Part shown: one piece after another, positions 12,636-63,705 of the stretch
Layout: each line of letters starts with the position of its first letter
Position numbering within the stretch: the stretch's first letter is position 1
NCBI GenBank assembly: GCA_964422035.1
Contig: CAYQZQ010000001.1
Location: 587,786 to 651,785 of the forward strand
Direction: 5' to 3'
From: an uncultured Pseudomonadales bacterium
GTDB lineage: Bacteria > Patescibacteriota > Microgenomatia > UBA1400 > Chazhemtobacteraceae
Length of the DNA: 64,000 nt
Position numbers and translations under genes: made by a program
Notes under the pieces: generated by a model
The model's input: the letters and a program-made list of their open reading frames with translations, nothing else
Database searches by the model: none
Told to the model about the DNA's origin: nothing

Positions 12636-12660
12636 ATAGGTTTGTTGATAAAATACATAT

Positions 12661-13671: not shown

Positions 13672-13675
13672 CAAG

Positions 13676-17561: not shown

Positions 17562-17584
17562 TGTAAGAGATAGTATACAGGTGC

Positions 17585-18577
17585 TTATTCTTCTAAGAGA
17601 GAGTCTTGAGATGATTGAAGGGATTGAGCAGAATTGATTTTTTGACCTAATTTATTGAGATCTTGACCAGCGTTATTTGTTTGATTGTAAGCATTGGTGA
17701 CGTGACGATTTAAAGTTGAAAAAGTGTCTTCCAATTGGGAGTAATCTTTTCTCATACCTCTTAAGAGTTGAAGGACTTTTTTGGATCGGGCTTCTATTTT
17801 TTGTCCTTGAAACGAGAGCATTATAGTTTGAAGAGAGGCGTAGAGGGTGGTTGGTGAGACAGGATATACTCGCCTTTTTCTGGCATATTCAAGTGTATCG
17901 GGGTGGTTGACGATTTCATAATAGATAGATTCTGAGGGGAGATACATAAGAGCAAAATCTAGGGTTTCTTCGTCTGGTAAAACATATTTTTTGGATATAT
18001 CTCTAATGTGTTTTCTGACGTCTTTTATAAAAACCTTTTCGTATCTCTTTTTTTCTTCTTCGGTTTCTGCTTCAGCCATTTTTTGAAAGTTTTCCATGGG
18101 AAATTTGGAATCGATGGGCAAAATTCCAGCAGAGGTCTTTATGGCGGCATCTACAATGGCTCCGGATTTGAAGGTGTATTGAAGATGAAAGGCACTTTTA
18201 GGAAACATCTGAGTAATCAAATCTTTTAAGACTTCTTCTCCAATATTTCCACGTAGTTTGGGAGACTCTAGAAATTCTTGCAACTGGTGCATTGAACGAC
18301 CGATTTCACTGAAAGCTCCTGCTTCTTTTTTTAAGTCTGCCATTACTTGAGTGGTTTTCTCTAATCTTTGGTGAAGTTGACCATAGCTTTCCTGAAGGGT
18401 GCTGGTAATATTTTTGTTTTGTGAAGCAAGAGAGTCTTGCATGCTTTTAAGCCACTCAATAAGAGTTGAGTCTTGCTGGTTTTCTTGAATGGTGCTTAGT
18501 TTTTTTAATATTAGAAGGTAAAGAATTGCAAAACCAGCCATGATAGCTGCTAGTATAAGAAATGTGTCAGAGTTCAT
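17585..18577 (-). CDS. rmuC: DNA recombination protein RmuC
   Basis: N-terminal TM (FLILAAIMAGFAILYLLIL), a long coiled coil, then an RmuC-type C-terminal nuclease-like domain ('IDSKFPMENF...YVLPDEETLDFALMYLPSESIYYEI'). Confidence 0.75.
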   Translation of the reverse strand: MNSDTFLILAAIMAGFAILYLLILKKLSTIQENQQDSTLIEWLKSMQDSLASQNKNITSTLQESYGQLHQRLEKTTQVMADLKKEAGAFSEIGRSMHQLQEFLESPKLRGNIGEEVLKDLITQMFPKSAFHLQYTFKSGAIVDAAIKTSAGILPIDSKFPMENFQKMAEAETEEEKKRYEKVFIKDVRKHIRDISKKYVLPDEETLDFALMYLPSESIYYEIVNHPDTLEYARKRRVYPVSPTTLYASLQTIMLSFQGQKIEARSKKVLQLLRGMRKDYSQLEDTFSTLNRHVTNAYNQTNNAGQDLNKLGQKINSAQSLQSSQDSLLEE

Positions 18578-28168: not shown

Positions 28169-28244
28169 TGGCGCAGTGGCGAAGTTAGTCTAACGCGGCG
28201 GTCTGCAAAACCGCTATTCACGGGTGCAAGTCCCGTCTGCGCCT
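28169..28244 (+). tRNA. tRNA-Cys (anticodon GCA) candidate with non-canonical D- and T-loops
   Basis: A perfect 7-bp acceptor stem (GGCGCAG/CUGCGCC), a 5-bp anticodon stem (GCGGU/ACCGC) with loop CU-GCA-AA (U33, A37), a 5-nt variable loop, and a 5-bp T-stem (ACGGG/CCCGU) with a 7-nt loop. The D-loop lacks GG and the T-loop reads UGCAAGU. Confidence 0.5.
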
Positions 28245-34579: not shown

Positions 34580-34897
34580 TTACTCAACTTGGGCAAGGAT
34601 GTCTTCGAATTTAAGAAATTGGAGTTCTTGTCCTTTGATAGTGACCTCGTTTCCTCCCCATTTTTTGTATACGACTAGGTCGCCTTTTTTGGCAGGGGAT
34701 GTTTGTTTTTGGTCGTCTTTTTGAATATCGTCTCCGACAGCAAGAACCTTGCCGTATTGGGGTTGCTCGTCATGAGTATCGGGTAAATAAATGCCTGTTT
34801 CTGTCTGTTTTTCAACTTCTGATGGTTCAACAATGATGTAACCAGGGGCGGGTTTTAAATTCTTAACTGAAAGAGAGGTTTTTTTCTTAGATGCCAT
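34580..34897 (-). CDS. groS: Co-chaperonin GroES
   Basis: 105 aa. The mobile loop region and 'GDLVVYKKWGGNEV' are typical of GroES. Confidence 0.9.
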   Translation of the reverse strand: MASKKKTSLSVKNLKPAPGYIIVEPSEVEKQTETGIYLPDTHDEQPQYGKVLAVGDDIQKDDQKQTSPAKKGDLVVYKKWGGNEVTIKGQELQFLKFEDILAQVE

Positions 34898-34936: not shown

Positions 34937-34963
34937 ATAGCACTTTACGTGCACGAGTGCTAT
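34937..34963. promoter_or_regulatory. CIRCE element (HrcA operator) upstream of groES
   Basis: ATAGCACTT-N9-GAGTGCTAT matches the consensus TTAGCACTC-N9-GAGTGCTAA. It is an 8/9 inverted repeat, 40-65 nt upstream of the groES start codon. Confidence 0.65.
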
Positions 34964-34986
34964 TTTATTTAAGGAAACTGCTGATG

Positions 34987-37485
34987 TCAAGTTTGTAGGT
35001 CATCAGATCCAGTCTTAGTCGATTCTTTTTTGTCAACCATCATGGTTAGATTATAACGTCCTTGATCATCTATTTCATAGAGTTTAACTTTTATCTGGTC
35101 TCCTTTATGGGCCCATTGATGTGGATCTTTGACGTATTCTTTTGAGATATTTGAGATGTGAACCAGTCCTTTGGTGTCGGGCAGAAATTCAACAAAGATG
35201 CCGTAGTCTTTGATGTTAGTTACCGAGCCGATGTATGTCTCGCCTACTTTGGGTTGGGTTTGTAATGGTTGTTGGGGAAGAATTTGGGGTGATTGGGGCT
35301 GGTTTTGGGATGGCTCTTGCTTGGTTTGACTGTGGCGTTGCTTTGAAGAGGTGATAACTTTTTGGCGATTGTGAGTGCGATTTTGTTCAGGTAGGGGCAA
35401 AGTGTAAGCGGGGAAGGGACTGGAAATGCGGCCGTCGATGGTGAGTTTGTTGATGATTTGATAGCGACCAAGGTTGACTAAGTCGTCCTGGGTATATAAA
35501 TCACCGAATTCTTGTTTTATTCTGTCAGCGTCATCAGCTCCGACTACAAATGTAGCAATGGTGCCTACGTTGCCAAAAATAGCTTTTTGAATTTCTTCAG
35601 GTAACTGAGCTGTATATTGGTTTGCAAGAGTTAAGCCAAGACGATATTTTCTGGCTTCGGAGAGAATTTTTATGAATGATTGAGTGGCAAAGTTTTGAAA
35701 CTCGTCAACATATAAGAAGAAATCTTTTCTTTCTTCTTCGGGAACGTTAACTCTGTTCATGGCTGCAAGTTGGAATTGGGTAATAAACATGGCACCAAGA
35801 AGAGCAGCGTTAGCTTCGCCTAATTTGCCTTGGGATACGTTAAGAATAAGGATTTTGCCTTGATCCATGATTTCTTCCAAGTCTATTGTTGAAGTGGGAC
35901 TTTCTAGCACTTTTCTTATGGTGGGGCTGCCGATGAATTGACCTACTTTGTTTAAGATAGGGGCCACCGCTTCGGTTTGGAGTCGCTCTGAATACTGATT
36001 AAATTCTTTTTCCCAAAAATCAATTAGCACTTGATGCTCGATGGCATCGAGACTATTAACAATTTTTGAACGAAACTGGCCATTGGTGAGGATTTTGGGA
36101 ACATCAAGCAAAGTTGAGCCGGGGGTTTCAACAAGAGTCAAAAGAGTGTTGCGGAAGATGTACTCCATGCGTGGCCCCCATGAATAATGAAAAAGTTTAT
36201 GAAAGATAGAGACGATGCCTTCCATGACGAGCTCTTTGTGCTCTGGTCGTTTTACTTCAAGTGGATTGAGGTGGAAAGGACGATCCATGTTGGTAGGATC
36301 AAGATAAGCAACATCTTTGATGCGATGGTCTGGTACGAAATCCAGAAGTATATCTGAAAGGTCTCCATGAGGGTCGATGACGGCCAGTCCTTGATCTTTT
36401 TGCAGATCTGAGATGGCCATGTTAGCCATTAACCAAGATTTACCTGTGCCTGATTTGCCTAAGATATAAAAATGTCGACGACGATCGGTAAGCCTGATAC
36501 CAAATGGAGCGAGTCTGTTTTTGAATTCGGTTTTGGCGTAGATGGTTAGACTTTTCTCTTCTTGAGAAGTTGTGGATTTGGCAACTGGCAGGTTATCTGG
36601 CGGCTCTCCCCGCAGGGTTTTGCCCCAGGCAAGGTTGCGAATTCCGACGTGTTGCAGGCTAGGAAAGTGAAAAAGACTGGCGAGTTCAACAACATTTAAG
36701 ACTTGATTTTTGGGTATAAAGTTGGGGGTGCGATTAATAAGTGATGAGATGAATTTTTGTTTGCGCTTGGGTTTTTGAAGTGAGAAAGAGTTGCCCTGGT
36801 TGAGAGTATAGGTATGGTAGGCACTGGATAGTTGAATGAGGAGACTTTGGGCTTGATTGGGATCTTTGGAGGTAGTGAGAATTCTTAGGTCAGCTTGGTA
36901 GGCTGGTGAGGAAATCTTGTCTTCGATAAGGTTGGCTTGAGGGTGGGCTTTGAAAACTTCAGGATCTGGGCTGACTCCTTTTTCGATGATGTGTCGGCTG
37001 CCTTGAGCCCAACCAGAGGGAGCGGCGGTAAGGAGTATTTGAATAATGGCAGCAGAGTGAGGAGTGGTTTTGGAGAGAACCCCTAGTATGGCTGAGAGGG
37101 GGTCTGTGTCTTCAAATTGATTGTAGGTTTTAAGAGGAAAATGATAGGGAGAGGTTAGCTGCAGCTGACCGGTACAAGTATGACCGTAGTTAGTCCATCC
37201 TGGTAAGTAGTCCTCCATTTGAGTGATAACTGAAGTTGGGTATTGGGCGGCGATTTGATTGCGGAGAAGTTGTTGATGTTTTTGGGGGGCGGTGACGATG
37301 AAGAATACTCTTTGGTTGAGGCTGGCAATTTCCAGACTAATGGTGGGTTGATTGTTTAAAAGTCTTTGAAAAAAGTTATCACTTAAAATGTTGTTTAAAC
37401 CAGAGAGAAACTGAGCAGACGCTTCTGGAGTATATTCGGAGTCTTTAGCAGTTCGGACTTCTAAGATTGTGCGTTGGGCAGGCAT
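34987..37485 (-). CDS. VirD4/TrwB/TraD-like P-loop ATPase (type IV coupling-protein-like) with C-terminal S1 RNA-binding domain
   Basis: 832 aa. 'RRRHFYILGKSGTGKSWLMANMAISDLQKDQGLAVIDPHGDLSDIL' (the TrwB_AAD-type Walker A plus 'DPxGD'). Walker B 'FFLYVDEFQNF'. A Gln/Pro-rich linker, then the S1 fold 'VGETYIGSVTNIKDYGIFVEFLPDTKGLVHISNISKEYVKDPHQWAHKGDQIKVKLYEID'. Confidence 0.6.
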   Translation of the reverse strand: MPAQRTILEVRTAKDSEYTPEASAQFLSGLNNILSDNFFQRLLNNQPTISLEIASLNQRVFFIVTAPQKHQQLLRNQIAAQYPTSVITQMEDYLPGWTNYGHTCTGQLQLTSPYHFPLKTYNQFEDTDPLSAILGVLSKTTPHSAAIIQILLTAAPSGWAQGSRHIIEKGVSPDPEVFKAHPQANLIEDKISSPAYQADLRILTTSKDPNQAQSLLIQLSSAYHTYTLNQGNSFSLQKPKRKQKFISSLINRTPNFIPKNQVLNVVELASLFHFPSLQHVGIRNLAWGKTLRGEPPDNLPVAKSTTSQEEKSLTIYAKTEFKNRLAPFGIRLTDRRRHFYILGKSGTGKSWLMANMAISDLQKDQGLAVIDPHGDLSDILLDFVPDHRIKDVAYLDPTNMDRPFHLNPLEVKRPEHKELVMEGIVSIFHKLFHYSWGPRMEYIFRNTLLTLVETPGSTLLDVPKILTNGQFRSKIVNSLDAIEHQVLIDFWEKEFNQYSERLQTEAVAPILNKVGQFIGSPTIRKVLESPTSTIDLEEIMDQGKILILNVSQGKLGEANAALLGAMFITQFQLAAMNRVNVPEEERKDFFLYVDEFQNFATQSFIKILSEARKYRLGLTLANQYTAQLPEEIQKAIFGNVGTIATFVVGADDADRIKQEFGDLYTQDDLVNLGRYQIINKLTIDGRISSPFPAYTLPLPEQNRTHNRQKVITSSKQRHSQTKQEPSQNQPQSPQILPQQPLQTQPKVGETYIGSVTNIKDYGIFVEFLPDTKGLVHISNISKEYVKDPHQWAHKGDQIKVKLYEIDDQGRYNLTMMVDKKESTKTGSDDLQT

Positions 37486-37508: not shown

Positions 37509-38189
37509 TTATTGGTTAGAAAGTGCTGAGGATTGTTCTTGATTGGTGCTTTCTTGTTGATCTTGTGAAGGGGGCGAAGATTGGGGTTGATCTTTTTTAA
37601 AAACAATTTTATCTTTGGGCTTGTCGGTTTTGCCGATGATTTTTACTTGGGACAAAAGAATGCCTTCAACCACTAAGCCTTTATCATCAAAAAGCTGGGT
37701 CAGTTCCTTTTCAAGAGCTTTTTCAATAGCGGTTCTTTGTGAACGAATCTGCTCGGCTTTAATTTGAGTGAAGATATTGGAGATTCTTGAGCGGGCAAAG
37801 GGACGGACTACTTTGGAGACGAAGTTGTCACCTATGTTTTCCCAAAGTTCGGGAGCATTTTTTTTGTCAATTCTGAAAAGAACTGAACCTTCTACAGAGA
37901 TTTCCTGGCCATCTTGGGTGGTGGTGGTTATAGCTTTATCCCCTAGAGCTTCTTTGTTTTTAGGATTAAAGTTTTCAACTATCGAGTATTCGAGTATTTG
38001 AGCGTTGAAGAGCTTGGCAACCTGCCAGAATGGAATCTTAAGGTGCAAACCCGGACCCCAGACTCGATGAAGAACTCCTCTACCCCTGTCATAGATACAA
38101 GCAACGTGGCCGGGGGGCACAGAGACGAAAAAACCTCCAACTACTTCATCTACCAGAAAGCTGACTATTAGTTTGTCAAAATCTGCCAT
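37509..38189 (-). CDS. SPFH/band-7 (prohibitin/stomatin-like) membrane protein with Gln/Ser-rich tail
   Basis: An N-terminal hydrophobic segment, then an SPFH core ('IPFWQVAKLFNAQILEYSIVENFNPKNKEALGDKAITTTTQDGQEISVEGSVLFRI') and a coiled coil. Confidence 0.7.
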   Translation of the reverse strand: MADFDKLIVSFLVDEVVGGFFVSVPPGHVACIYDRGRGVLHRVWGPGLHLKIPFWQVAKLFNAQILEYSIVENFNPKNKEALGDKAITTTTQDGQEISVEGSVLFRIDKKNAPELWENIGDNFVSKVVRPFARSRISNIFTQIKAEQIRSQRTAIEKALEKELTQLFDDKGLVVEGILLSQVKIIGKTDKPKDKIVFKKDQPQSSPPSQDQQESTNQEQSSALSNQ

Positions 38190-38533
38190 ATTATTGTGTG
38201 GTGCTTAATTGTTGATTGTTACTAGTCTCTTCAGATTGGAATTCAGATTGACCTGGGGGGAATATCTGAAGGGCTTACTATCCATGTATGATACCAGAAA
38301 ACTAGCTGTATGACTAATTAAAATACTATGGAAAGAAGTAGGGTGGTTATATGGAATCACGAGAGAGTCTCTAGTGAAGTTTTAATACCTTTTAGGCAAG
38401 TTTTCTTTTTTCTTCAGCCGTTATTTGTACCCTGAGTTTGACTGGTAAAAGAATAATGAGAATGATTAAAGCAAAGGCTATAGTGGCTATTAGGTTGTTA
38501 GAAGAGGACTAATTGAGGAAGGTGATAGAAGAC

Positions 38534-39394
38534 TCAATCACTGTTGGTTGTATTTTGCAATTTTTGTGTTTGTTTGGTAAGTTGAGAGGCAATTTTAGGA
38601 TAAAGAGGGCGGGGGTGAAAATAGGCTGAATGAAGAGTAATGGTTTCTTGAGTGAGTTTGGGCTTCATATATAGATACTGGAGAGTAAAAAGGAGTAGGT
38701 TTAAAGGAGCTAATAGGTAGGTGAAAGGGGAAGCTTTGTTTTTTGATTGTTTTTTGTTAAAAGATTGGTAAGCGTTGGATAAGTGTTTTTTTACCCACGA
38801 GTTTTGAGATAAAAGTTGTTGGTGCGTATTGTGGCGGTCAAAAAGAGGTCTGACTTGAAGTATTTCATGGGCTGTATAGAGATTGCGCTTGGGTTCGGGA
38901 ACAGAGAGACCTAGAGAGTCAAGCCAGAGATTGTTGCAGATGTCATTTGAAGTAATAGCTGTTTTTTGAGGACGGCGGCGAGAGAAAAAAAGTTTGGTTA
39001 TGATGAAAACAAAGGGTCTGGTTATCCAAAGAGTGTGAGGGGTGGTGACAATTAAAATGTCAATGTCGTCTTGAGGACGGGCGTTGTTGACGGCTATTGA
39101 ACCGGTGGCAGCGATTAGATTGATAGTGGGAATGTGTTTTATAAAACTGGTAAGGCGTTGGGCTACTTTTAGCTTTTTTTGACTAATTTTTGTTCTTTTT
39201 TGACGCTTGGGGGTTAGTTGAGAGTGAATATGTTTTTTAAGTTGAGGTGCTTGATTGATAAAGTCTTTTAGCTGCTTTTTGGAGATAATGTGGGGAGAGA
39301 TTAGTCTTTGGTGCAGATCAGTTAAGCTAAGATCATAATCGAAAAAACGGGCATACTGAATCGTGGCAGCGACCGTCTGGTCAAGAGAGGTCAT
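38534..39394 (-). CDS. Hypothetical protein with possible nucleotidyltransferase-fold core (GS...DxD)
   Basis: 286 aa. 'LIAATGSIAVNNARPQDDIDILIVT' resembles the minimal-NTase (Pol-beta superfamily) motif. The call is weak. Confidence 0.3.
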   Translation of the reverse strand: MTSLDQTVAATIQYARFFDYDLSLTDLHQRLISPHIISKKQLKDFINQAPQLKKHIHSQLTPKRQKRTKISQKKLKVAQRLTSFIKHIPTINLIAATGSIAVNNARPQDDIDILIVTTPHTLWITRPFVFIITKLFFSRRRPQKTAITSNDICNNLWLDSLGLSVPEPKRNLYTAHEILQVRPLFDRHNTHQQLLSQNSWVKKHLSNAYQSFNKKQSKNKASPFTYLLAPLNLLLFTLQYLYMKPKLTQETITLHSAYFHPRPLYPKIASQLTKQTQKLQNTTNSD

Positions 39395-55963: not shown

Positions 55964-56275
55964 ACAAGTGGTGGAAAAGGAGTGGATAAAAAATTAAAAA
56001 GTGAACAAATATTGATTAACTTAAAATAAAATAAAAAGATATCCCAAAATTTAAATAATAATTCACAATAGAATTCACAATATTAAACAGTAATTAACAA
56101 AACATAACCCAAAAACAAGAGCTCAGCGGCTTTTATTTTTGAAGATCAAAAATCGGTATATCAATTAAAATATGGGTTTTAAACAAAAACAACAGGCAGA
56201 ATACAGGCGTAGTATCCAGATATACACAGTGCCTATTATTACGACTATATATTTATATATAATTAATTAATAACA
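55964..56275. other. Candidate oriC / DNA-unwinding element (dnaA-dnaN intergenic, very AT-rich)
   Basis: 312 bp, almost entirely A/T. DnaA-box-like 'AGTGGATAA' (55981-55989) and 'GGTGGAAAA' (55970-55978). Tandem 'GAATTCACAATA' repeats (56068-56095). AT-runs are suitable for unwinding. The canonical dnaA-oriC-dnaN arrangement. Confidence 0.45.
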
Positions 56276-57394: not shown

Positions 57395-57395
57395 T

Positions 57396-58454
57396 CTACT
57401 GATATAGGTTTTCAGGTAGGGCAGGGACGATGAATCTTGATTGAGGGAAGTTAAGATCGTTAGTGGAGAGGGGGCCGGTTAGGGAGTAGACAGGTTGAAG
57501 CAGGTTGGGGTTTTGAGGATCGAAAAAGAATGATAAGCGAATATCTTGAACAGTTAAGTTAAGTTGGGAAGCAGAATTCAGTTGTTTTTCTTGTTTAATT
57601 AGGTTGGTACTGGGAAGTCTTTGAGCTTTTTGGGGAGCTGTTTGTTGAAGATTTGAATAAGAGGCAGGGGAAGAAGTGGAGATGGAGGTAATGGTTTGAA
57701 ATCCGCCTAAAATTTCAAGATATTTGATGTTAAGTTGGGAATCAAAGATGACGATAATAGGGGCGTTGTTTGTAGTGGTGGTATAGATAGGGAGGTTGTC
57801 AGGAGATTGGGTGAAAAAAAGACTTCTTAGTTTGTCGGGTTGGTCGTTTTGATAGTTTGAAGAGTCAAGAATGACTGGTTCACCGATGACTTGAAGTTGA
57901 GACGGTGAGTTTAATATTTGATTGAGTCTTTCAGTTATGTTTTGTTTGATGATTTGGTTGTTAGGGAACTCGGAAATGGGTAGTTGAGGAGAAGAGTTGT
58001 TAAAAGTAAGTTGATTGCTGTTTAGATTGACAGAGAGAGAGTGAGGTGGTTTTGACCAAACTAGAAAGGGAGGTTGGTTGGCGACTAAGTCTTGATTTGA
58101 GAAACCTAAGTTTTGAGCAATAGTTTGTGAGGAAGAGTTATTAATTAAAGGAGTCTGAATTTTGTAGAGATTTAATTTATCTGGCAGTTGAGGAGGTTGA
58201 GTCTGCCAGGAAATGATTAGGCCCTGGTCTTGATTTTGAAGTGGTGAGCTGGCTTGGGGGAGAGGAATCGGTGAGGCAGTAATTTGGGGAATAGGGGATG
58301 GTTGACTAGGAATTTGGGTTGGTGGGTTTTGGATAACTAGATAAGCAATTAGGCCAATAATTAACAAGGTGATGGCAGTAATAGAGACGGTGGAGAGGTT
58401 TAGAGAGGAAAGTTTTTGTTTTATGCCGGTGAGTATGTTTTTATTAAGGTCCAT
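57396..58454 (-). CDS. Hypothetical N-terminally TM-anchored extracytoplasmic protein (Pro/Gln/Ser-rich stalk plus C-terminal domain); candidate T4SS scaffold (VirB8/PrgL-like role speculative)
   Basis: 352 aa with TM 'VSITAITLLIIGLIAYLVI'. No catalytic motif. It is convergent with dnaN, separated by 1 nt, and overlaps the next gene by 11 nt. Confidence 0.4.
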   Translation of the reverse strand: MDLNKNILTGIKQKLSSLNLSTVSITAITLLIIGLIAYLVIQNPPTQIPSQPSPIPQITASPIPLPQASSPLQNQDQGLIISWQTQPPQLPDKLNLYKIQTPLINNSSSQTIAQNLGFSNQDLVANQPPFLVWSKPPHSLSVNLNSNQLTFNNSSPQLPISEFPNNQIIKQNITERLNQILNSPSQLQVIGEPVILDSSNYQNDQPDKLRSLFFTQSPDNLPIYTTTTNNAPIIVIFDSQLNIKYLEILGGFQTITSISTSSPASYSNLQQTAPQKAQRLPSTNLIKQEKQLNSASQLNLTVQDIRLSFFFDPQNPNLLQPVYSLTGPLSTNDLNFPQSRFIVPALPENLYQ

Positions 58455-60954
58455 AGATTTTTTGTCCGTTAATTAAACAAGCGTTGGGGGCAGAAGGGTT
58501 GTATCCGCTACATCCTTCAGGAACATTAACGCCTGCGGCTGGGCATTTATTGTATTTTATACCGACGTATTCAAGGTGAAGATGGGGATTTTGAAAACTG
58601 GGGACTGAGCTGGTAGCTCCGGAAAGGCCAATTTGAGTGCCTGGTTTGACTGATTGACCTGGTGATACAAAAGTAGCTGAGAGGTGACCGTATATAACCT
58701 GGAAAGATTGACCTTTTGAGTAAGCATCGAGAATTATCCAGTTACCGTAGACTCCTCCCCAACCGGTTATTTTGATGGTACCAGGAACCACGCTGTATAC
58801 AGGAGTGGCAACTGGAGCTGAGATGTCTATGGCTTCGATTGCTGAGTGAGAGAATGAGCCGTGAGGGCCTTGAGTTACGGGACCGCGGTTGCCTAGTGGC
58901 CAGGCAGGAGCACAGCCGTCAATGATGGGGCCGCTGTAGGGGGTGACTCCTTGTCCGCCGATTAGTGCGGGCAGACCAGATTCAAGTTGGACGATGGTGG
59001 AGATGAGCGGGCCGGCATTGAGGGCGGCTATGTAAAACAGAAGAACAGCAATGGAAGAAAAGATGAGTGTTACTAGGGCAGATGCACCGGCGGTGAAAGT
59101 GGCTGATATAGCAGATTGCAAAGCTCGTCCTAGGCCGGTAATTATTCCAATACCAGCAGATCCAGCCATAATAAAGGGAGCGAATAAGTCTCTCTTTTTA
59201 ACTTTTTCTCCGTAAAGGGTGACAGCGATATTTTGGACAAATTCTTTTACCTTTTTGATTATGGCTGTGCTGACGGTGATGATGATATCAACGACAACTC
59301 CTAGTCCTGGTACTACATTTAGAGATTCTGCGGCTATATGAATACCAAGTTGTTCCGCGGCTTGAAGAGAGATTTTTTTGAGCAGCTCTTTGGCACCTGT
59401 TTGGAAGCCTTTTTGAGCAAGAGTTTGTAGACCTTTTTTAAGTACTTGGTGAGAGGTTTTTTGGGCGAGGCGAGTAAATATTCTTTTACCCAAGAATGAA
59501 CTGGCTTTGGTTCGAAGGAAGCCGACGGGAGAGAGAACGGCTTGGATTGTGGTGTGGGAAGAGGCAGGGAAAAGTGAGAGAAGGCGATTTCTTAAAGGAT
59601 TTAGTTTAGATAAGAGGGGATTTTTTTGAGCTTGAAGGAGAAGTTTTTGGCCGGCTTCTGTGTCTGCTAGATTAAAATAATTAGAGAGAATAGAGGAATA
59701 AAATTTAAGATTGTTGTTCACTTGTTGATGAAGAGGATGGTCTGGTTGAGTTTGAGCTTGTTGGAGGGTTGATTGAAGTTGTTGGGGAGTAATTCCGCGA
59801 CCCAGGTAACGAATTAGCAGTGGTGAGAATTGAGGTTGATCAGGAATATTTTCAGTAAAGCTGGCCCAGGCTTCAGCTTCTTGCAAGGGAAATATTCTTA
59901 GGGTTGGGTTTTGTTTTCTTAGGGAAGAGAGAAGTTGGGGCTTGTCAACGTGAGATTCAGGGTTGGCTTGTTGGAAGATTTTTTGGGTAGTGGGGTGGAT
60001 GCTGAGTTGGTTAAGTGAAATATTATTGTTTTTATGGAAACTATTGAGCTGGTCAAAAAGTGGAGAGTCTTGAGGAACTGATTGATAATTTTGATCAACA
60101 ATGTCTTTTTGAAGATTTTTAAGATTGGTACTTTGAAGGAGTTTTTTGGTGTTGTCTTGATTGATTTTTTGTAGTAGGTGGTCGGTGTTAATGGTGGTGG
60201 AAAAAAGCGGGTCAGAGTAGTGGGTGTCAAGGTATTGTTGGGGTTTTTGGAAAAGAAACTCAAAGTCTGGTTGTTGGGCGGGTTGGACAAGAGGGGTGAT
60301 TTGTTGGTTAAGTTGGTAAAGAGAAGATTGAGATTGGTATTGAGGGCTGTTTTGAGCGAGAGCGAGGTCGGCAAGAATTGGCAGTTGTTTGGCGCTGGGT
60401 TGAAGAAGGGTAATGTCGTTGGCTAGAGTTTGTTGAGCTTTGTTGGTTTCTTGGGCGGGAAGTTGAAGGTTTTGATTTTGAATTTTTTGGGAAATGACTT
60501 GTTGAGCAAGGTCTTGATTGATCTGATGAGGGTCAGATTGAGGTTTGGTAGTGGAAGCTTTTTTTATGGTTTGGGTTTGGGTTTGATTGAGTTGTAGGGC
60601 AAGTTTTTCTTGAATGATTTTTAGTTGTTGGTGGTGAACAAGGTATGAGATGAGGTCTTTTTGGTCTTGTTCAAGAGAGGTGTTTTTGAGAGGTTTTTGG
60701 AGTTGTTGTTGGTAGTTTTGATACTGGACGACCAGTTGGGTTAAAAGAGCGGTGTCGATATAGTTGGTTTTGTTTTCAGGTTGAGGGGCGGTGAGAAGTT
60801 GTTTTAGTTGTTGGGGTTGGATTTGATAGAGATTGGATAGATCTTGAAGGAGTTGTTCCAACTCCTGTTTTTGTTGAAGGGTGAGCTGGTCTGACTCTTT
60901 TGAAAGTAGAGTTTGCAGCTGTTGACGCTTGGTTTCAAGTGTTTGATAATCCAC
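58444..60954 (-). CDS. Coiled-coil / multi-TM / C-terminal M23 peptidase protein (T4SS- or injection-associated cell-wall hydrolase candidate)
   Basis: 836 aa. About 520 aa of Gln-rich coiled coil, then hydrophobic helices ('VPGLGVVVDIIITVSTAII', 'LFAPFIMAGSAGIGIITGLG', 'ALVTLIFSSIAVLLFYIAAL'), then M23 motifs 'HSAIEAIDISAP' (HxxxD) and 'NPHLHLEYVG' (HxH). Confidence 0.65.
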   Translation of the reverse strand: MDYQTLETKRQQLQTLLSKESDQLTLQQKQELEQLLQDLSNLYQIQPQQLKQLLTAPQPENKTNYIDTALLTQLVVQYQNYQQQLQKPLKNTSLEQDQKDLISYLVHHQQLKIIQEKLALQLNQTQTQTIKKASTTKPQSDPHQINQDLAQQVISQKIQNQNLQLPAQETNKAQQTLANDITLLQPSAKQLPILADLALAQNSPQYQSQSSLYQLNQQITPLVQPAQQPDFEFLFQKPQQYLDTHYSDPLFSTTINTDHLLQKINQDNTKKLLQSTNLKNLQKDIVDQNYQSVPQDSPLFDQLNSFHKNNNISLNQLSIHPTTQKIFQQANPESHVDKPQLLSSLRKQNPTLRIFPLQEAEAWASFTENIPDQPQFSPLLIRYLGRGITPQQLQSTLQQAQTQPDHPLHQQVNNNLKFYSSILSNYFNLADTEAGQKLLLQAQKNPLLSKLNPLRNRLLSLFPASSHTTIQAVLSPVGFLRTKASSFLGKRIFTRLAQKTSHQVLKKGLQTLAQKGFQTGAKELLKKISLQAAEQLGIHIAAESLNVVPGLGVVVDIIITVSTAIIKKVKEFVQNIAVTLYGEKVKKRDLFAPFIMAGSAGIGIITGLGRALQSAISATFTAGASALVTLIFSSIAVLLFYIAALNAGPLISTIVQLESGLPALIGGQGVTPYSGPIIDGCAPAWPLGNRGPVTQGPHGSFSHSAIEAIDISAPVATPVYSVVPGTIKITGWGGVYGNWIILDAYSKGQSFQVIYGHLSATFVSPGQSVKPGTQIGLSGATSSVPSFQNPHLHLEYVGIKYNKCPAAGVNVPEGCSGYNPSAPNACLINGQKIYGP

Positions 60955-61009
60955 GAATTTACGGTGGTTAGTAATTGTGAGTATAGTTTACTATGAACAA
61001 AGGAAGAAA

Positions 61010-62917
61010 CTAAGTTTGATCTGATTGAGGTGGGTTTGAAGAATCAGAGCTTTGATTTGTTGATTCTTGTTGGTCTTTTTCTCTTTTATCCAGAATTTCT
61101 TGAGGTTTGGTGGTTATTAGAGCGTGCTCATCGGGAGAGGAAACAACTCTGAGGGCGACGTGGTTTTGTCCGGCGAAAAAGATACCCTCTCCGACATTAG
61201 CAGAAAGAAGAAGGTGTTTTTCTCCTTGAGAGAGATAGAAAAGATCAGCCAGTTTATCAATGGCGGCGGGGGATTGTTTCATAAGAAACTGAATAGCGGA
61301 GTTGGTGACGATACTGGAGCCGTATTGGGAGTTGAGAAAGTCTTCAACATTTTGAGAGATGATACTAACCCCTAAATAATACTTTCTGGCGCGTTTAACA
61401 AAGCTTTGCAGGACCTGGGCAGAGTCCTCGTGTCTCATTAGGTACCAGGCCTCGTCAACGATGAGAAGACGGCGCTTAAGTTCTCTGCGAATTTGGGTCC
61501 AGATGAAGTCTAAGATCATGAACATGATAATTGGTCTGATTTCATCAGCGGTTTCTTTGAGAGAGAAAACAGTCATGGGTGAGTCAAGATCAATGTTGGA
61601 TTGTTGGTCAAAGATACCTCTTAAGCCGCCCTTGACGAATTTTTCCAGTCGGCGAGCTAGAGATTGGGCAGGTTTTTCTTCCATACCGATGAGAACTTTG
61701 TATAAGTCTTCCATACGGGGTGGTGGATTGTTGTGGGTACTGGGATCTTGGGTGATATTGCGCTGTTGATAGGTCAGGTTAATGGCTTGATTGAGTATGG
61801 CGTCCTGATCTGGAGATATTTCTCCAAGCATGATTTTTAGAAGAGAGGTCAAAAAAAGATGTTTGTAGTTCATTTCATCAGGTGATGAATTTTCTGCAGG
61901 GGGAAGCTGGAAAGGGTTTATTTTATTGGCAGAGGTGGTTTCAAAGGAGATGTGGTTGCCACCAACGGCTTTGCAGAGCATTTCGTATTCGTTTTCAGGG
62001 TCGATGATGATGGCGTTGGTGCCGAACATAAGAGAGCGAAGCATTTCCAGTTTGACAAGATATGATTTTCCAGCACCTGAGGTGGCTAGAACTAACATGT
62101 TGGCGTTTTCTAGAGAGAAGCGATCGAAGATAACTAAAGACTCGTTGTGTTCGTTGATGCCATAGAGGATGCCTTTATTGTCGGTAAGCTCTGAGGAGGT
62201 GAAGGGGAAAGTGGTTGAGAGAGCAGTGGTGTCCATGTTGCGGGTGATTAAGAGTTTGTCTTTACAGTAAGGAAGAGTAGATTTAAAAGCTTCTTCTTGT
62301 GAGAGAGAGGCAATTTTGGAAACGATGATAAGGGAGCCGAGAAGAGATTGGACTTGACTGGTGATGGTTTCAAGTTCTTTTTTGGTGTCGGTTGAGATGG
62401 TGATATAGAGAGAAAATTGGAAGAAGCGCTCAACTCCTTTGGTTAACTGGGATTGGAGGCTTTTAGCGTCTTCAAGTTGGGCTTGTGTGGAGGCTTGAGG
62501 AATACGACCCCTCTCGACGTCTGAACCGATTTCGGCCTCCATTTCGGCAATACGGCGGCGGAGTTTGTCAAGAGTACCTTTGACCTCGATGGGGTAAATG
62601 AACATGGAGACGTCTAGAGAGTGATCGAAGTTAATTAAGGGTGACAACCAGTTGGCAGAGACGTAGCGAGGGTAGCCGGCGACGAAAAGGGTGCGGGTAT
62701 AGGTGGAGCCGATTTTGAGATAAGTAAAATCAACTTCTATTGAGGGAGGAGCGATGATGTCTTGAACGTTTACAGTTCCGGAAGCAGCTGAGTCGGGTAG
62801 ATTTTTTTCTTCCTCCGGTTTTGATTGAATAGTAGGGGTGGATTTGGGTGGGGAAGGAGGTTGTTTTTTGGGGGATTGATCCTTTTTGTTTTGGTTTAGG
62901 AAAGGAAGTATGTTCAT
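61010..62917 (-). CDS. VirB4/TrbE/PrgJ-like type IV secretion ATPase
   Basis: 635 aa. An N-domain 'TRTLFVAGYPRYVSANWLSPLINFDHSLDVSMFIYPIE' is like VirB4. Walker A 'LVLATSGAGKSYLVKL...AIIIDPENEY'. Walker B 'LLIVDEAWYLM' is the diagnostic VirB4 'DEAW'. Confidence 0.7.
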   Translation of the reverse strand: MNILPFLNQNKKDQSPKKQPPSPPKSTPTIQSKPEEEKNLPDSAASGTVNVQDIIAPPSIEVDFTYLKIGSTYTRTLFVAGYPRYVSANWLSPLINFDHSLDVSMFIYPIEVKGTLDKLRRRIAEMEAEIGSDVERGRIPQASTQAQLEDAKSLQSQLTKGVERFFQFSLYITISTDTKKELETITSQVQSLLGSLIIVSKIASLSQEEAFKSTLPYCKDKLLITRNMDTTALSTTFPFTSSELTDNKGILYGINEHNESLVIFDRFSLENANMLVLATSGAGKSYLVKLEMLRSLMFGTNAIIIDPENEYEMLCKAVGGNHISFETTSANKINPFQLPPAENSSPDEMNYKHLFLTSLLKIMLGEISPDQDAILNQAINLTYQQRNITQDPSTHNNPPPRMEDLYKVLIGMEEKPAQSLARRLEKFVKGGLRGIFDQQSNIDLDSPMTVFSLKETADEIRPIIMFMILDFIWTQIRRELKRRLLIVDEAWYLMRHEDSAQVLQSFVKRARKYYLGVSIISQNVEDFLNSQYGSSIVTNSAIQFLMKQSPAAIDKLADLFYLSQGEKHLLLSANVGEGIFFAGQNHVALRVVSSPDEHALITTKPQEILDKREKDQQESTNQSSDSSNPPQSDQT

Positions 62918-63705
62918 GTTTGTTGGTTGTTTATTGATTGATGGGGTGACTTTGGTGGTTGTTGTTCAGTTGAAGCTGGTGTTTGGGCTGTTTGTTGTGT
63001 TTGTTCAGGTTGGGTGTCTGATTTTTTTTGAGCTTGGACAGCGGTGGTTTGATATTGGTCTGGTTCTGCCTGGTTGGGTAAGCCTTCGGGGTTGTCTGGA
63101 TTGTATATTTTGTAGAAAAGAGCCATGAGTTGTTTGGTGTTTAGTTGTTGGGCTTGGAGGCCAAGACTGGAGAACTGGCTGATCAAATGGTCGCGGCGAG
63201 GGAAAAGGTTGTCTTTGGCTTTCTTGAGGATGTAGTCGATTTTATAGGATGGTTTTTGTTGTTTGCTTGAGAAGGGGTTAAGTCCTTGAGAAAAAGTTTC
63301 TTTGAGGGTGAGTTGAGAGTAGGGAATGACGAGATAGAATTTTTTTTCTAAAACTTTGTTTTTCTTGACCAAGTTTTTAATGAAACTGCGATATTTAACA
63401 ACCTGCTCTTTTAATTTTTGTGACTGAGTTTGTTTAAGGTTGTTGTCGAGGCGCTGAATGTAGTCGGAGATATCTTTTCTGATTGAGCGCATGAGAATTT
63501 GAACTGGGAAAGAGAGAGAATTGAGAAGAGAGGCATAGGCGTAGATGATGGCGTCTTGCTCTTGTTCTGACAAGAGACCGAAGTTGATGGCGTTAAGCTG
63601 GAGGACTAGAGCTGCTGAGCCGTCTTTGAGAATAAGAAGATCGTCTTTAATGGTGTAGACATTGAGGTGATCTTGAGTGGTAGATTTTAATGCTTTGTTT
63701 AACAT
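62914..63705 (-). CDS. Hypothetical protein, possibly a detached N-terminal segment of the VirB4-like ATPase (or VirB3-like partner); Gln/Thr-rich tail
   Basis: 263 aa. 'NVYTIKDDLLILKDGSAALVLQLNAINFGLLSEQEQDAIIYAYASLLNSLSFPVQILMRSI' resembles the extreme N-terminus of VirB4/TrbE proteins. The stop overlaps the VirB4-like start by 4 nt. Confidence 0.4.
   Translation of the reverse strand: MLNKALKSTTQDHLNVYTIKDDLLILKDGSAALVLQLNAINFGLLSEQEQDAIIYAYASLLNSLSFPVQILMRSIRKDISDYIQRLDNNLKQTQSQKLKEQVVKYRSFIKNLVKKNKVLEKKFYLVIPYSQLTLKETFSQGLNPFSSKQQKPSYKIDYILKKAKDNLFPRRDHLISQFSSLGLQAQQLNTKQLMALFYKIYNPDNPEGLPNQAEPDQYQTTAVQAQKKSDTQPEQTQQTAQTPASTEQQPPKSPHQSINNQQT

Follow-up and report, generated by a model that had tools for sequence, protein, structure and literature searches.

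Coupling proteins (T4CPs) of type IV secretion systems (T4SSs) are widespread in Patescibacteria. The sections of a 2025 survey on which we draw (Quinonero-Coronel et al. 2025, PMC12102498) report T4CP homologues in 2,918 of 3,035 genomes (96%) and VirB4 in 2,417 (80%), so that many genomes keep a T4CP homologue without a detected T4SS. According to the same sections, 148 of 5,713 homologue copies lie near virB4, and a possible exaptation was suggested. They also state that epibiotic growth of Southlakia epibionticum requires the T4SS genes but not the T4CP homologue, and that the T4SSs of Patescibacteria are mostly devoid of relaxases. Such relaxase-less systems are thought to export proteins or to play another role (PMC12102498 and the part of PMC10633639 used here).

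T4CPs without a transmembrane domain (TMD) are a recognised subfamily, thought to rely on separate membrane partners (PMC7434980). All known T4CP C-terminal domains are rich in Glu and Asp and have a role in substrate reception (PMC7434980).

Here we describe an ATPase gene of an ultra-small (Patescibacteria) bacterium. The window, that is, the whole stretch of DNA analysed, spans 64,000 nt (GCA_964422035.1, contig CAYQZQ010000001.1, positions 587,786 to 651,785, forward strand). The gene's family is probably the one published in 2025 as 'T4CP homologues to VirD4' of Patescibacteria: it spans nearly the whole phylum and, like the homologues in the sections cited from PMC12102498, it is mostly unlinked from virB4. 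Existing JGI/NCBI names of its relatives include 'TraG/TraD family ATPase VirD4' and 'type IV secretion system DNA-binding domain-containing protein'. The main text of PMC12102498 mentions neither NUDIX nor DUF87, and the sections covered here do not discuss a VirB4-like N-terminal domain (NTD), C-terminal modules, TM loss in Microgenomates or a Band_7 operon. We found no earlier description of the variable nucleic-acid-binding-type tails, their repeated swaps, S1 domains in at least four architectures, the acidic tails of two conjugative homologues or a TM loss confined to Microgenomates.

Domain architecture and identity of the ATPase

The gene encodes a soluble protein of 832 aa in which a VirB4-NTD-like domain (DUF8128) is followed by a T4CP-type ATPase, a disordered, basic Q/P-rich linker and a canonical S1 domain (Table 1). 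Five members of its 90%-identity cluster have exactly 832 aa, each on a separate contig (the 725.5-kb contig of the window and four Logan contigs of 6–32 kb), and an S1 tail is common to 25 of the 120 closest protein clusters. Thus, the fusion is not an assembly artefact.

Table 1. Coordinates of the ATPase gene, its domains and related features in the window
Feature	Position (nt)	Strand	Basis or remark
DUF8128 / T4CP-type ATPase / S1 fusion, whole gene	34987..37485	-	ORF, 832 aa, ATG start; domain searches
N-terminal domain, residues 1-305 (PF26449:DUF8128, precomputed annotation)	36571..37485	-	alpha/beta fold like VirB4/TrwK NTD; no TM segment
RecA-like T4CP-type ATPase domain, residues 320-700	35386..36528	-	Pfam, PDB profile, fold match, profiles on T4CP-position proteins
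Walker A GKSGTGKS, residues 343-350	36436..36459	-	G343 K344 G346 G348 K349 invariant in 51 sequences; aligned with TrwB P-loop
All-helical insertion, residues 414-541, at place of T4CP all-alpha domain	35863..36246	-	predicted model
Walker B region FFLYVDEFQ, residues 589-597	35695..35721	-	L591 Y592 V593 D594 E595 F596 Q597 invariant; aligned with TrwB 'lwLfiDEl'
Linker, residues 701-744	35254..35385	-	conserved basic helix, then Q/P-rich disordered stretch; net charge +5
S1 OB-fold domain, residues 745-815	35041..35253	-	Pfam, PNPase model, PDB S1 chains, predicted structure
Band_7/SPFH protein, 226 aa, hydrophobic N-terminus	37509..38189	-	Band_7 91 bits; KD19 1.83 at residues 7-25
Weak promoter-like site upstream of Band_7, TAGTCA-17-TATCAT with TG	38288..38316	-	9/12 consensus match alone; functional role not implied
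groES promoter-like site TTGACA-17-TAAAAT, overlapping ATPase stop codon, then CIRCE-like inverted repeat	34938..34990	-	11/12 match, top score of region
groES	34580-34897		neighbour of ATPase gene
dnaA/dnaN-adjacent T4SS cluster, possible partner machinery	57396..63705	-	reaches window edge; link to ATPase inferred
Content of T4SS cluster			352-aa protein; 836-aa protein with C-terminal M23 peptidase; VirB4; TrsD/TraC-N-like 263-aa protein
VirB4-like gene, bona fide VirB4 of the genome	61010-62917		in dnaA-proximal cluster; 23.5 kb from ATPase gene

The sequence-only reading had taken the P-loop, VIDPHGDL and VDEFQNF motifs of this open reading frame as signs of a VirD4/TrwB-type coupling ATPase. 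All of them are present, and ILGKSGTGKSW...VIDPHGDL (residues 341-376) and VDEFQNF (593-599) are invariant or nearly so in 51 relatives. The T4CP-like nature of the ATPase held up in Pfam searches with relatives, fold comparison and homologues from conjugation clusters, but the TM-anchored VirD4/TrwB architecture did not.

A clustering with HerA or FtsK had been named as one observation that would speak against a T4CP. At first this seems to be what the query gives, since among ATPase Pfam models it exceeds the cutoff of DUF87 ('HerA central') alone (41.3 bits, cutoff 23.2) and stays just below those of TrwB_AAD_bind (19.7, cutoff 20.5) and TraG-D_C (19.5, cutoff 22). The DUF87 model is, however, generic for the superfamily; it also matches conjugative T4CPs and the VirB4 of the window, so the match is not discriminating. 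Across 51 relatives, TrwB_AAD_bind was found in all, TraG-D_C in 47 and T4SS-DNA_transf in 15 (E < 0.01), and distant full-length members exceeded the TrwB_AAD_bind threshold with 49-52 bits across nearly the whole model. Against PDB sequences the family profile scored best with TrwB (25 bits, over the P-loop and Walker B), compared with 11-14 bits for HerA. The fold match of the ATPase domain points the same way (TMt ~0.60 for TrwB, 0.51-0.56 for Cag-beta, 0.52 for DotL and 0.47-0.50 for HerA).

Two features identify a T4CP here. One is a TrwB-like RecA nucleotide-binding domain (NBD) with Walker A and B and an inserted all-alpha domain. In the structure model the insertion consists of eight helices (H414-431 to H536-541, pLDDT 85-96), and the fold match leads us to infer that it is equivalent to the all-alpha domain (AAD) of TrwB. 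The other is orthology to genes in the coupling position, distinct from VirB4; in the Bacillus and Embleya clusters these genes have a replication-relaxation neighbour. Family profiles gave 142-246 bits (ATPase) and 16-49 bits (NTD) on the T4CP-position proteins of the Bacillus, Embleya and haloarchaeal clusters; the proteins in the VirB4 position there scored no more than 11 bits. The VirB4 models CagE_TrbE_VirB and AAA_10 did not match the query, and AAA_10 matched 11 of 51 members weakly. An hhalign comparison of the query with the window's VirB4 returned a probability of 13%, and with the TrsD-like protein nothing. The deeper tests favour a T4CP-type ATPase rather than HerA or VirB4.

The NTD, modelled alone with AF2 (pLDDT 85, pTM 0.86), has a fold of the VirB4 type: the top 13 Foldseek matches were all TrwK/VirB4 (E 3e-7 to 3e-5, TMq 0.45-0.53). 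Its profile also matched the T4CP-position proteins of the Bacillus plasmid (E 2e-16) and the haloarchaeon (E 4e-13). No TM segment was found anywhere in the 832 aa, the highest 19-residue Kyte-Doolittle window reaching 1.29 against a usual threshold of 1.6. The absence of an N-terminal TM pair, as first read from the sequence, is thus borne out. The view that this is atypical for a classical T4CP needs qualifying, since TMD-less T4CPs are an accepted subfamily (PMC7434980) and the lack of an anchor does not exclude membership. Additionally, relatives outside Microgenomates do have an N-terminal TM segment (KD up to 3.3); the anchor is retained in most lineages and its loss is confined to Microgenomates. 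The architecture is that of the monoderm/archaeal type with a VirB4-NTD-like domain (DUF8128) of ~300 aa, not that of TM-anchored VirD4/TrwB.

The C-terminal S1 OB-fold behind a Gln/Pro linker, also proposed earlier, was confirmed. The linker starts with a basic helix (H707-718 in the model; consensus NRxKVI..S.ERY, N706 and R707 nearly invariant) and is predicted to be disordered at residues 723-741 (pLDDT below 50). Residues 745-810 match Pfam S1 (PF00575) at 53.6 bits (cutoff 22; E 3e-14). With this region the S1 portion of the PNPase model gave 74 bits, and chains of ribosomal protein S1 gave 68 bits; the closest resemblance is to the C-terminal S1 of PNPase. Five strands are predicted (E750-759, 762-768, 771-776, 797-805 and 811-815; pLDDT 74-95). 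The query keeps the five positions (aromatic, His, Asp, Arg) that we take to be the nucleic-acid contacts of E. coli PNPase S1. By these criteria the domain is a canonical S1: it exceeds the curated cutoff, is predicted to fold into a five-stranded OB structure and conserves the presumed nucleic-acid-binding residues.

Genomic setting and distance from the T4SS

As the sequence-only reading had stated, the gene lies between groES and an SPFH gene. The latter encodes a Band_7 protein and lies 23 nt upstream of the ATPase ATG, and no terminator-like site was found on the minus strand between the two genes. The same adjacency, with gaps of 16-45 nt, is kept in relatives with S1, NUDIX or no tail, and is limited to the query's subclade within Microgenomates. 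Band_7 is probably the first gene of a bicistron and co-transcribed with the ATPase. On the other side, a CIRCE-like inverted repeat, TAGCACTC-N9-AAGTGCTA, follows the groES promoter-like site; we take the CIRCE consensus to be TTAGCACTC-N9-GAGTGCTAA. Judged from these predicted signals, the promoter-like site and the repeat show where the Band_7-ATPase unit ends and place groESL under separate control.

The surrounding housekeeping synteny (LeuRS, TsaD, VanW, SBP, Band_7, the ATPase gene, GroES/EL and GAPDH) is kept at ~52% protein identity. The ATPase-S1 gene is a core chromosomal gene of this bacterium. It had correctly been called unlinked from VirB4, although the distance is larger than the 20 kb first given. 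A VirB4 orthologue lies ~2-2.5 kb from the family gene in just 3 of 83 relative loci. No relaxase-type family was detected among the 40 larger ORFs of the window that were scanned, and the window holds no second copy of the ATPase gene.

Variable tails and possible functions

The S1 fusion is real, but S1 is just one of several interchangeable tails. The C-terminal module is variable (S1, RppH-like NUDIX, RG-rich or zinc finger), of nucleic-acid-binding type as judged from sequence, and repeatedly swapped: tails with S1, NUDIX, RG-rich low complexity or nothing are interleaved on the core tree. According to a survey of the fusion's distribution, no fewer than four architectures acquired S1 (TM-less, TM-anchored P0263, split-type P0322, and P0364). 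Most family members have just a basic tail of ~23 aa, and S1 forms are a small minority (~6 of the best 150 representatives), which makes S1 an accessory rather than the core mechanism. NUDIX tails match RppH models best, and many of their NUDIX boxes are degenerate. Split-type tails can carry a zf_Tbcl_2 zinc finger. In actinomycete elements, NUDIX proteins also have a part in conjugal immunity (Pif; PMC3218068), so a non-RNA reading of these tails can be made.

Of 119 long tails, 96 carry a net positive charge, as do 82 of 84 short ones. Net charge is negative in 21 of the 119 long tails, and in P0322 the S1 is followed by an acidic stretch. The tails of conjugative homologues are strongly acidic (-36 over 174 aa in Bacillus, -68 over 536 aa in the halophile); this contrast draws on two long-tailed homologues, one of them from a halophile, and on a review statement. 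The replacement of an acidic docking tail by S1 hints that the motor may be used on RNA or naked single-stranded DNA. The putative handling of single-stranded nucleic acid, suggested earlier from the S1 domain, gains strength from the other tail modules.

We tentatively favour, at a little less than an even chance, an exapted and chromosomally fixed coupling-protein motor whose receptor tail binds single-stranded nucleic acid, RNA or ssDNA, at the membrane. The protein would assemble into a hexameric ring on the inner side of the membrane, as other T4CPs do, where the SPFH scaffold would hold it in place of TM helices of its own. The C-terminal module would occupy the place of the acidic substrate-receptor tail of conjugative T4CPs, re-tooled to bind single-stranded nucleic acid directly rather than a relaxase-DNA complex. 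RNA is the likelier ligand, given the RppH-like NUDIX, RG-rich and zinc-finger tails of sister proteins. The captured strand would then be threaded or remodelled at the expense of ATP. Its most plausible destination would be the relaxase-less T4SS 23.5 kb away. This is the weakest step, and a T4SS-independent role is nearly as likely.

Such a role could be that of an RNA-metabolism machine, in which the T4CP-derived hexamer translocates or remodels RNA in the cytoplasm or close to the membrane, much as Rho or degradosome helicases do, with tails that recruit transcripts or 5' ends and no export. The tail repertoire of S1, NUDIX, RG-rich and zinc-finger modules does resemble that of RNA helicases and RNases, the S1 is closest to that of PNPase, and the gene sits in housekeeping synteny. 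The family is also wider than VirB4 and rarely adjacent to a T4SS, both in our loci and in the counts cited from PMC12102498. Nevertheless, RNA is not a known substrate of any VirD4/VirB4-clade member, the nearest homologues from other phyla are without exception conjugation components, and catalytic residues are gone from many NUDIX tails. The TM anchor of most lineages and the SPFH partner found here fit a membrane task better than bulk RNA turnover, and we regard the RNA machine as possible, but doubtful. An unlikely alternative is a coupling protein for protein substrates, which would work like VirD4 and DotL and supply the T4SS of Patescibacteria with effectors. Its tail would be regulatory or a tether (e.g. 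to ribosomes or mRNAs, coupling synthesis to export), not a receptor for translocated nucleic acid. T4CPs of effector systems receive substrates through their C-terminal regions (PMC7434980), the protein export proposed for relaxase-less T4SSs would suit this role, and the degenerate state of many Nudix boxes suggests modules that only bind. However, the effector-receptor tails known so far are acidic (PMC7434980), whereas those of this family are basic or RNA-binding folds, and the repeated independent gains of S1 point to a nucleic-acid ligand. The dispensable homologue of S. epibionticum, beside its essential T4SS, also argues against it.

Taken at face value, the DUF87 match would make the protein a HerA/FtsK-type translocase for DNA repair or segregation, which we consider very improbable. 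PADLOC HerA models do match the protein, but with 33 bits or less and over the P-loop only, and in other lineages 9 to 14 loci have dprA-topA upstream. The HerA fold and profile matches are weaker than those to TrwB, HerA_C occurs in just 5 of 51 members, and the NTD is alpha/beta and VirB4-like, with no HAS barrel. No NurA-like gene was found in the Pfam-annotated neighbourhoods, and the orthology to T4CP-position genes is strong. We give the least credence to the reading as a standard conjugative T4CP encoded by an integrated mobile element, or as part of an anti-phage defence system (MADS or HerA type). The plasmid homologues are indeed conjugative T4CPs, and PADLOC mad8 reaches 44.8 bits, over the ATPase core only. 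This is at odds with the conserved synteny, the near-universal presence in the phylum, and the lack of a relaxase-type family or second gene copy in the window as scanned; the Band_7 and NTase-like neighbours gave no meaningful matches to defence models.

The favoured reading of a strand-binding, membrane-held motor has a bolder form. The Patescibacteria T4CP homologue would be a motor that translocates RNA (or, independently of relaxases, ssDNA): the tail would capture the strand and the ring would hand it to the essential relaxase-less T4SS, for RNA or DNA exchange with hosts. We consider this improbable. If true, nucleotide-auxotrophic episymbionts would swap RNA or DNA with their hosts, for nucleotide scavenging or host manipulation, and the VirD4/VirB4 clade would gain its first member that handles RNA.

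Likeness to known coupling proteins and motors

In functional terms, the query can be compared with Rho, which joins a hexameric RecA-type motor to an OB-fold RNA-binding domain. The two motor lineages are unrelated, and we claim no homology.

The VirB4/TrwK type shares a soluble N-terminal alpha/beta domain and a C-terminal ATPase with the query, and full-length TrwK gave the best Foldseek E-value (1.6e-15), but there is no significant sequence similarity between them. With TrwB (R388) and VirD4-type proteins the query shares a RecA-like NBD with a helical insertion and a DPxGD motif after Walker A. Unlike the query, VirD4-type T4CPs have at least two N-terminal TM helices and no soluble NTD of 300 aa (PMC7434980), and TrwB/VirD4-type tails are acidic or absent where the query has S1. 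The TraJ/TraI pair of pIP501 ('MP?' in the T4CP classification, PMC7434980) offers a parallel in that a soluble coupling ATPase is presumed to be linked to the membrane through a separate partner. In pIP501 the partner is a small polytopic membrane protein, whereas the query's candidate is an SPFH scaffold, a pairing suggested by gene order alone.

The nearest conjugative likeness is to T4CP-position ATPases of monoderm and archaeal (MPF-FATA-like) elements. Examples are WP_121549396.1 ('DUF87 domain-containing protein') on the B. subtilis plasmid NZ_CP032854, WP_331738717.1 on the Embleya plasmid NZ_CP108778, and the split pair WP_152944001.1 / WP_193565100.1 on the Natronorubrum plasmid NZ_CP045489. 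The Bacillus and Embleya genes adjoin a replication-relaxation protein, a VirB4-like ATPase, TcpE/PrgI-type proteins and a cell-wall hydrolase. The haloarchaeal pair lies in a pilin and conjugal-transfer cluster, after a conjugal transfer protein of 1,100 aa; no replication-relaxation gene is annotated in that plasmid stretch. The query differs from these homologues in belonging to the core chromosome, in its basic linker and S1 domain, and in that no relaxase-type family was found in the scanned window ORFs. It shares with them the DUF8128-like NTD and the T4CP ATPase, with 23-29% of residues identical between positions 1 and ~700. The Bacillus protein is TM-less like the query, and the haloarchaeal gene has the split form seen in Parcubacteria-type relatives.

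The ATPase-S1 fusion protein

The P-loop and Walker motifs from which the sequence-only reading had called a T4CP-like ATPase are all present in the ORF, and the catalytic motifs are intact. The C-terminal S1 domain that it had proposed was recovered by profile search (Pfam S1, 53.6 bits, cutoff 22, residues 745-810), and its nearest match is the C-terminal S1 of PNPase (74 bits, NCBIfam). The query domain keeps the aromatic residue, His, Asp and Arg through which PNPase S1 contacts nucleic acid. The ATPase itself scored 41.3 bits with the Pfam model DUF87, 19.7 with TrwB_AAD_bind (cutoff 20.5) and 19.5 with TraG-D_C (cutoff 22).

The domain boundaries come from an AlphaFold2 model built on an alignment of 51 relatives (mean pLDDT 86.9); all structural statements here depend on models that are predictions and on one search method, Foldseek. 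The Gln/Pro linker noted before the S1 domain is predicted to be disordered, with pLDDT below 50 at residues 723-741. Since no 19-residue Kyte-Doolittle (KD) window exceeds 1.29, the protein has no TM helix, as had been claimed for its N-terminus.

Five members of its 90%-identity cluster, each 832 aa long and from a different contig, are on record, and an S1 tail is present in 25 of the 120 nearest protein clusters, so the fusion is real. When the junction (core end, linker and S1) was searched against a set of 5.8 billion proteins, nearly all matches were gene fragments.

Features of the window and of the predicted ATPase-S1 protein
Feature	Position	Strand	Remarks
UvrD-like helicase	10746-12635
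AddA-like helicase-nuclease	14487-17561		1024 aa, PD-(D/E)XK domain
RmuC	17585-18577
tRNA	28170-28244		sole match of the Rfam scan
groES	34580-34897		downstream of the ATPase gene
Sigma70-like promoter-like site with repeat	34938-34990	-	11/12 match, best in region
ATPase-S1 fusion gene	34987-37485	-	832-aa ORF
Band_7/SPFH gene	37509-38189		upstream of the ATPase gene
NTase-like protein	38534-39394	-	286 aa; NTP_transf_2 20.9 bits (weak), 'DDIDILIVT', hydrophobic C-terminal part
DUF4012 protein	47603-50449	-	948 aa, ~10 kb from the ATPase gene
dnaA	54572-55963
dnaN	56276-57394
VirB4-like gene	61010-62917	-
Alpha/beta N-terminal domain	residues 1 to ~300		AlphaFold2 model
RecA-like ATPase	residues ~320-700		AlphaFold2 model; eight-helix insertion 414-541
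Conserved basic helix	residues 707-718		AlphaFold2 model; then disordered Q/P-rich linker
Five-stranded OB fold	residues 750-815		AlphaFold2 model

Genomic setting

The gene lies, as had been read from the sequence, between groES and an SPFH (Band_7) gene. Band_7 ends 23 nt from the ATPase start codon, no minus-strand terminator-like site was found between the two, and the Band_7 N-terminus is hydrophobic (KD 1.83). The ATPase gene is probably in an operon with this SPFH membrane protein. In the query's subclade both belong to a housekeeping block: LeuRS, TsaD, VanW, SBP, an NTase-like protein of ~280 aa, (YidC), Band_7, the ATPase gene, GroES and GroEL, then lineage-specific genes such as TGT, then PGK and/or GAPDH. 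The block is kept at only ~52% protein identity, whatever the tail type. The NTase-like protein of the window has the same place, between SBP and (YidC), Band_7, in all subclade relatives.

A functional link to GroES/GroEL was considered and rejected. A strong promoter-like site, TTGACA-17-TAAAAT, overlaps the ATPase stop codon upstream of groES and is followed by a near-consensus CIRCE-like inverted repeat, TAGCACTC-N9-AAGTGCTA. With its own promoter-like site and operator-like repeat, groESL is a separate heat-shock unit, and its adjacency carries no functional weight. For this Patescibacteria genome, the arrangement implies a heat-shock response under HrcA-type control. The Rfam scan gave no RNA element near the ATPase gene.

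The separation from the VirB4 cluster that had been claimed stands, at a distance of 23.5 kb and not 20 kb, and a clear VirB4 orthologue ~2 kb away was seen in only 3 of the 83 Patescibacteria loci fetched. No second copy of the ATPase gene was found in the window, including its right edge by the T4SS cluster. That cluster follows dnaN directly on the opposite strand and reaches the window edge (dnaA, dnaN and the cluster together span 54572-63705). Its products are an uncharacterised protein of 352 aa, one of 836 aa that ends in an M23 peptidase domain, VirB4 and a TrsD/TraC-N-like protein of 263 aa. Such origin-proximal T4SS placement in Patescibacteria is reported in one study (PMC12102498). 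The plus-strand GC skew is strongly positive (0.15-0.49) over the whole window (1-64000), whatever the gene orientation, and does not change sign at dnaA/dnaN; the replication origin thus perhaps lies away from dnaA, or the skew has another cause. The window also holds a DNA-repair cluster at 10746-18577.

In other lineages, a sigma70-r4/HARE-HTH protein lies directly upstream in 19 loci, TopA is found in 14 and DprA in 9 (mostly on the same strand and upstream), SecF in 11 and FtsQ in 8. Both DprA and TopA are present in seven Saccharibacteria loci (L063, L066, L071, L072, L080, L084 and L085), the Microgenomates loci L039 and L042 are also among the DprA/TopA neighbourhoods, and ComEC/Rec2 is encoded ~3 kb downstream of a haloarchaeal plasmid homologue (L089). 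This proximity may hint at a link with ssDNA processing or competence, or may be inherited synteny. For TM-less copies outside the Band_7 clade, no universal adjacent membrane partner was found. A DUF4012 protein also lies directly downstream of the independent S1-fused homologue P0263 (locus L091, 4416-6602); its recurrence near S1-fused homologues may be a coincidence.

Affinities, distribution and tails of the family

In Foldseek searches, the ATPase domain fitted TrwB best (TMt ~0.60), ahead of Cag-beta (0.51-0.56), DotL (0.52) and HerA (0.47-0.50). Against solved sequences, the profile of the Patescibacteria family also favoured TrwB (25 bits) over HerA-type chains (11-14 bits), which speaks against the HerA affinity that had been named as a possible refutation. 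Among 51 members, Pfam matches comprised TrwB_AAD_bind in 51, TraG-D_C in 47, T4SS-DNA_transf in 15, AAA_10 in 11 and HerA_C in 5, and distant members passed the TrwB_AAD_bind cutoff over nearly the whole model (49-52 bits).

The most telling evidence was that tblastn against plasmids revealed full-architecture homologues, aligned over N-terminal domain and ATPase at 23-29% identity, in 717 plasmid records from hosts that include Bacillus, Streptomyces/Embleya, haloarchaea and Sulfolobus. On one B. subtilis and one Embleya plasmid, the homologue occupies the place that the coupling protein has in monoderm conjugation clusters, with genes for a replication-relaxation protein, for a VirB4-like ATPase, for TcpE or PrgI proteins and for a cell-wall hydrolase beside it. 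On one haloarchaeal plasmid, separate genes encode the N-terminal and ATPase parts, and they follow a pilin gene and the gene of a conjugal transfer protein of 1,100 aa. The ATPase family profile gave 246, 150 and 142 bits on these plasmid proteins (N-terminal profile, 16-49); on the VirB4-position proteins of those clusters and on the window's own VirB4 the family profiles reached at most 11 bits. The profile evidence thus favours T4CP over HerA and VirB4. Together with the plasmid homologues it places the query in the T4CP lineage of monoderm/archaeal systems, in line with the T4CP-like assignment made from the sequence.

The N-terminal domain is annotated as PF26449/DUF8128, of which we found no mention in the searchable open-access literature. 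Modelled alone (pLDDT 85, pTM 0.86), it gave TrwK/VirB4 of R388 as all of its best 13 solved matches (E 3e-7 to 3e-5, TMq 0.45-0.53); the next fold class followed at E 3e-4 and TMq ~0.3, and full-length TrwK was the top match of the whole model. Homology to VirB4 at the sequence level is unsupported: hhalign of the family alignment against the window's VirB4 gave nothing significant (13% probability), and the N-terminal alignment gave no match to the TrsD-like protein. The VirB4 likeness is therefore structural only.

When one genome per GTDB species was scanned, at least 595 species proved to have a relative. The matches listed, all nearly full-length and 34-56% identical, came from Microgenomates orders, Saccharibacteria, Dojka-, Berkel-, Peregrini-, Doudna-, Buchanan- and Falkowbacteria, Liptonbacteria and Paceibacterota. 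The family is very probably the published 'T4CP homologues to VirD4', which were counted in 2,918 of 3,035 Patescibacteria genomes, with only 148 of 5,713 copies near virB4, and VirB4 in 2,417 of the 3,035 (PMC12102498). The Patescibacteria-type gene also turns up in several MAG records that GenBank labels 'uncultured Gammaproteobacteria' or 'Pseudomonadales bacterium' (L007, L008, L010, L015, L016, L018 and others), in one 'Nevskiaceae' and in one 'Nitrospirota' record, and L007 and L008 also show Microgenomates synteny; these taxonomic labels are probably wrong.

Profiles and hydropathy were surveyed on the 83 loci. Microgenomates homologues lack a TM segment and begin with the N-terminal domain; in most other lineages a strongly hydrophobic stretch (KD up to 3.3) precedes it. 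The ORF starts were set mechanically, so some N-terminal TM calls may be wrong. TM loss is therefore a Microgenomates trait. Parcubacteria-type loci have two ORFs, [TM + N-terminal domain] and [ATPase + tail], which lie 10-31 nt apart in L058-L061, L064, L065, L073, L079 and L082; the haloarchaeal plasmid gene is also split. In seven loci the gene is present twice at full length on one strand: the copies adjoin in L049 and L052, whereas 0.6-2.5 kb separate them in L043, L046, L047, L068 and L077. Five of these loci have the long tail on the downstream copy.

In every relative, conservation of the core stops near residue 700, and one of five kinds of tail follows: a basic stub of ~23 aa, a linker with S1, a linker with NUDIX, RG/RGG-rich basic low-complexity sequence or a zinc finger of the treble-clef type (zf_Tbcl_2, 51.5 bits in L059), the last in split-type proteins. 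The NUDIX tails best match models of RppH, an RNA pyrophosphohydrolase (33-39 bits, under the equivalog cutoffs). Many have lost the Nudix-box catalytic residues (P0008, P0009, P0013, P0054, P0066 and others; e.g. 'KRVMIDQT' for 'REx2EE'), which suggests pseudo-enzymes acting as putative binding modules. P0008 has both S1 and a degenerate NUDIX.

A quick neighbour-joining tree of the core, whose branches carry no support values, intermixes the S1, NUDIX, RG-rich and tail-less forms. Residues 560-832 were also the query of an exhaustive search, which recovered more S1 fusions in other architectures at 41-44% identity: the TM-anchored P0263, whose sigma70-r4/HARE-HTH neighbourhood typifies Saccharibacteria and Parcubacteria, the split-type P0322 (S1, 79 bits) and a third form, P0364. 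Thus, S1 forms are rare yet recurrent. Many long tails end in similar short motifs (EGEEVQL, EGEEIVL, EGKSVKI, PGEPISLR, PGERVTFDS or YKDIFG; L043, L046, L060, L076, L077, P0011, P0015), and an internal 'Y(K/R)E..(ARG)G(V/D)(K/R)W(F/Y)(I/L)G' is common to L043, L046 and L077. Docking is one role that such peptides could have; the query tail has none of them.

Possible roles and comparison with known systems

We tentatively prefer a model in which the protein is a membrane T4CP-derived motor whose tail captures single-stranded nucleic acid. It would form a ring at the membrane, tethered by the SPFH protein in the query's clade and by its own TM helix in other lineages. The C-terminal module, at the substrate-receptor position of T4CPs, would capture the strand directly; the repertoire of S1, RppH-like, RG-rich and zinc-finger tails favours RNA as the ligand, with ssDNA also possible. 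ATP hydrolysis might then thread or remodel the strand. Passing it to the T4SS would be an attractive final step: Patescibacteria T4SSs lack relaxases and recognised coupling proteins (PMC10633639, PMC12102498). In the sole genetically tractable species, the T4SS is essential for epibiotic growth (PMC10633639, PMC12102498).

This hand-over is weakened by the wider occurrence of the family than of VirB4 and by the Southlakia epibionticum copy, which is reported as non-essential by authors who add that exaptation 'cannot be ruled out' (PMC12102498). A T4SS-independent role in RNA metabolism, which the wider occurrence also suits, we consider somewhat less likely than the preferred model. A T4CP for protein substrates with a regulatory tail we think improbable. 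The HerA reading was rejected on fold, accessory domains, neighbours and profile scores, and the defence-system reading was also rejected; taken together with a mobile-element role, suggested by the plasmid homologues, these deserve very little credence.

Patescibacteria (CPR) make up a large portion of bacterial diversity and are episymbionts unable to make nucleotides. The protein is their sole T4CP-like one, near-universal and unlinked from the T4SS. If it acts on RNA or naked ssDNA, it would broaden the range of substrates handled by VirD4/VirB4-clade ATPases and bear on CPR-host exchange of material; should it prove to be an RNA machine independent of the T4SS, it would clearly exemplify the exaptation of a conjugation motor for housekeeping. 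The nucleic-acid-binding tail is a concrete, cheaply testable hypothesis, and a binding assay with recombinant protein should be feasible because the Microgenomates forms lack TM segments and are probably soluble by prediction.

Earlier publications or annotations already cover the gene family, its affinity to T4CPs and its location apart from virB4. In open-access text we found no description of the VirB4-like fold of DUF8128 and its occurrence in conjugative monoderm T4CPs, of the Microgenomates-specific TM loss with the Band_7 operon, or of the recurrent swap of the T4CP receptor tail for S1, RppH-like NUDIX, RG-rich or zinc-finger modules; a search for T4CP together with S1 in that literature found nothing.

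Compared with VirB4/TrwK, the monoderm/archaeal T4CP lineage of the query has kept an N-terminal domain that is VirB4-like by fold, which bears on a common origin of T4CP and VirB4 ATPases. According to a review, all known T4CP C-terminal domains are enriched in Glu/Asp and receive the relaxosome or effector, as in TraD-TraM and the DotL tail (PMC7434980), and the plasmid homologues carry charges of -36 over 174 aa (Bacillus) and -68 over 536 aa (haloarchaeal, a value confounded by halophily). In contrast, Patescibacteria tails are net positive in 96 of 119 long and 82 of 84 short cases, a comparison that sets them against two long-tailed conjugative homologues and one review statement. Where other T4CPs have acidic docking tails, the Patescibacteria family has repeatedly gained modules of the kind that binds RNA or single-stranded nucleic acid.
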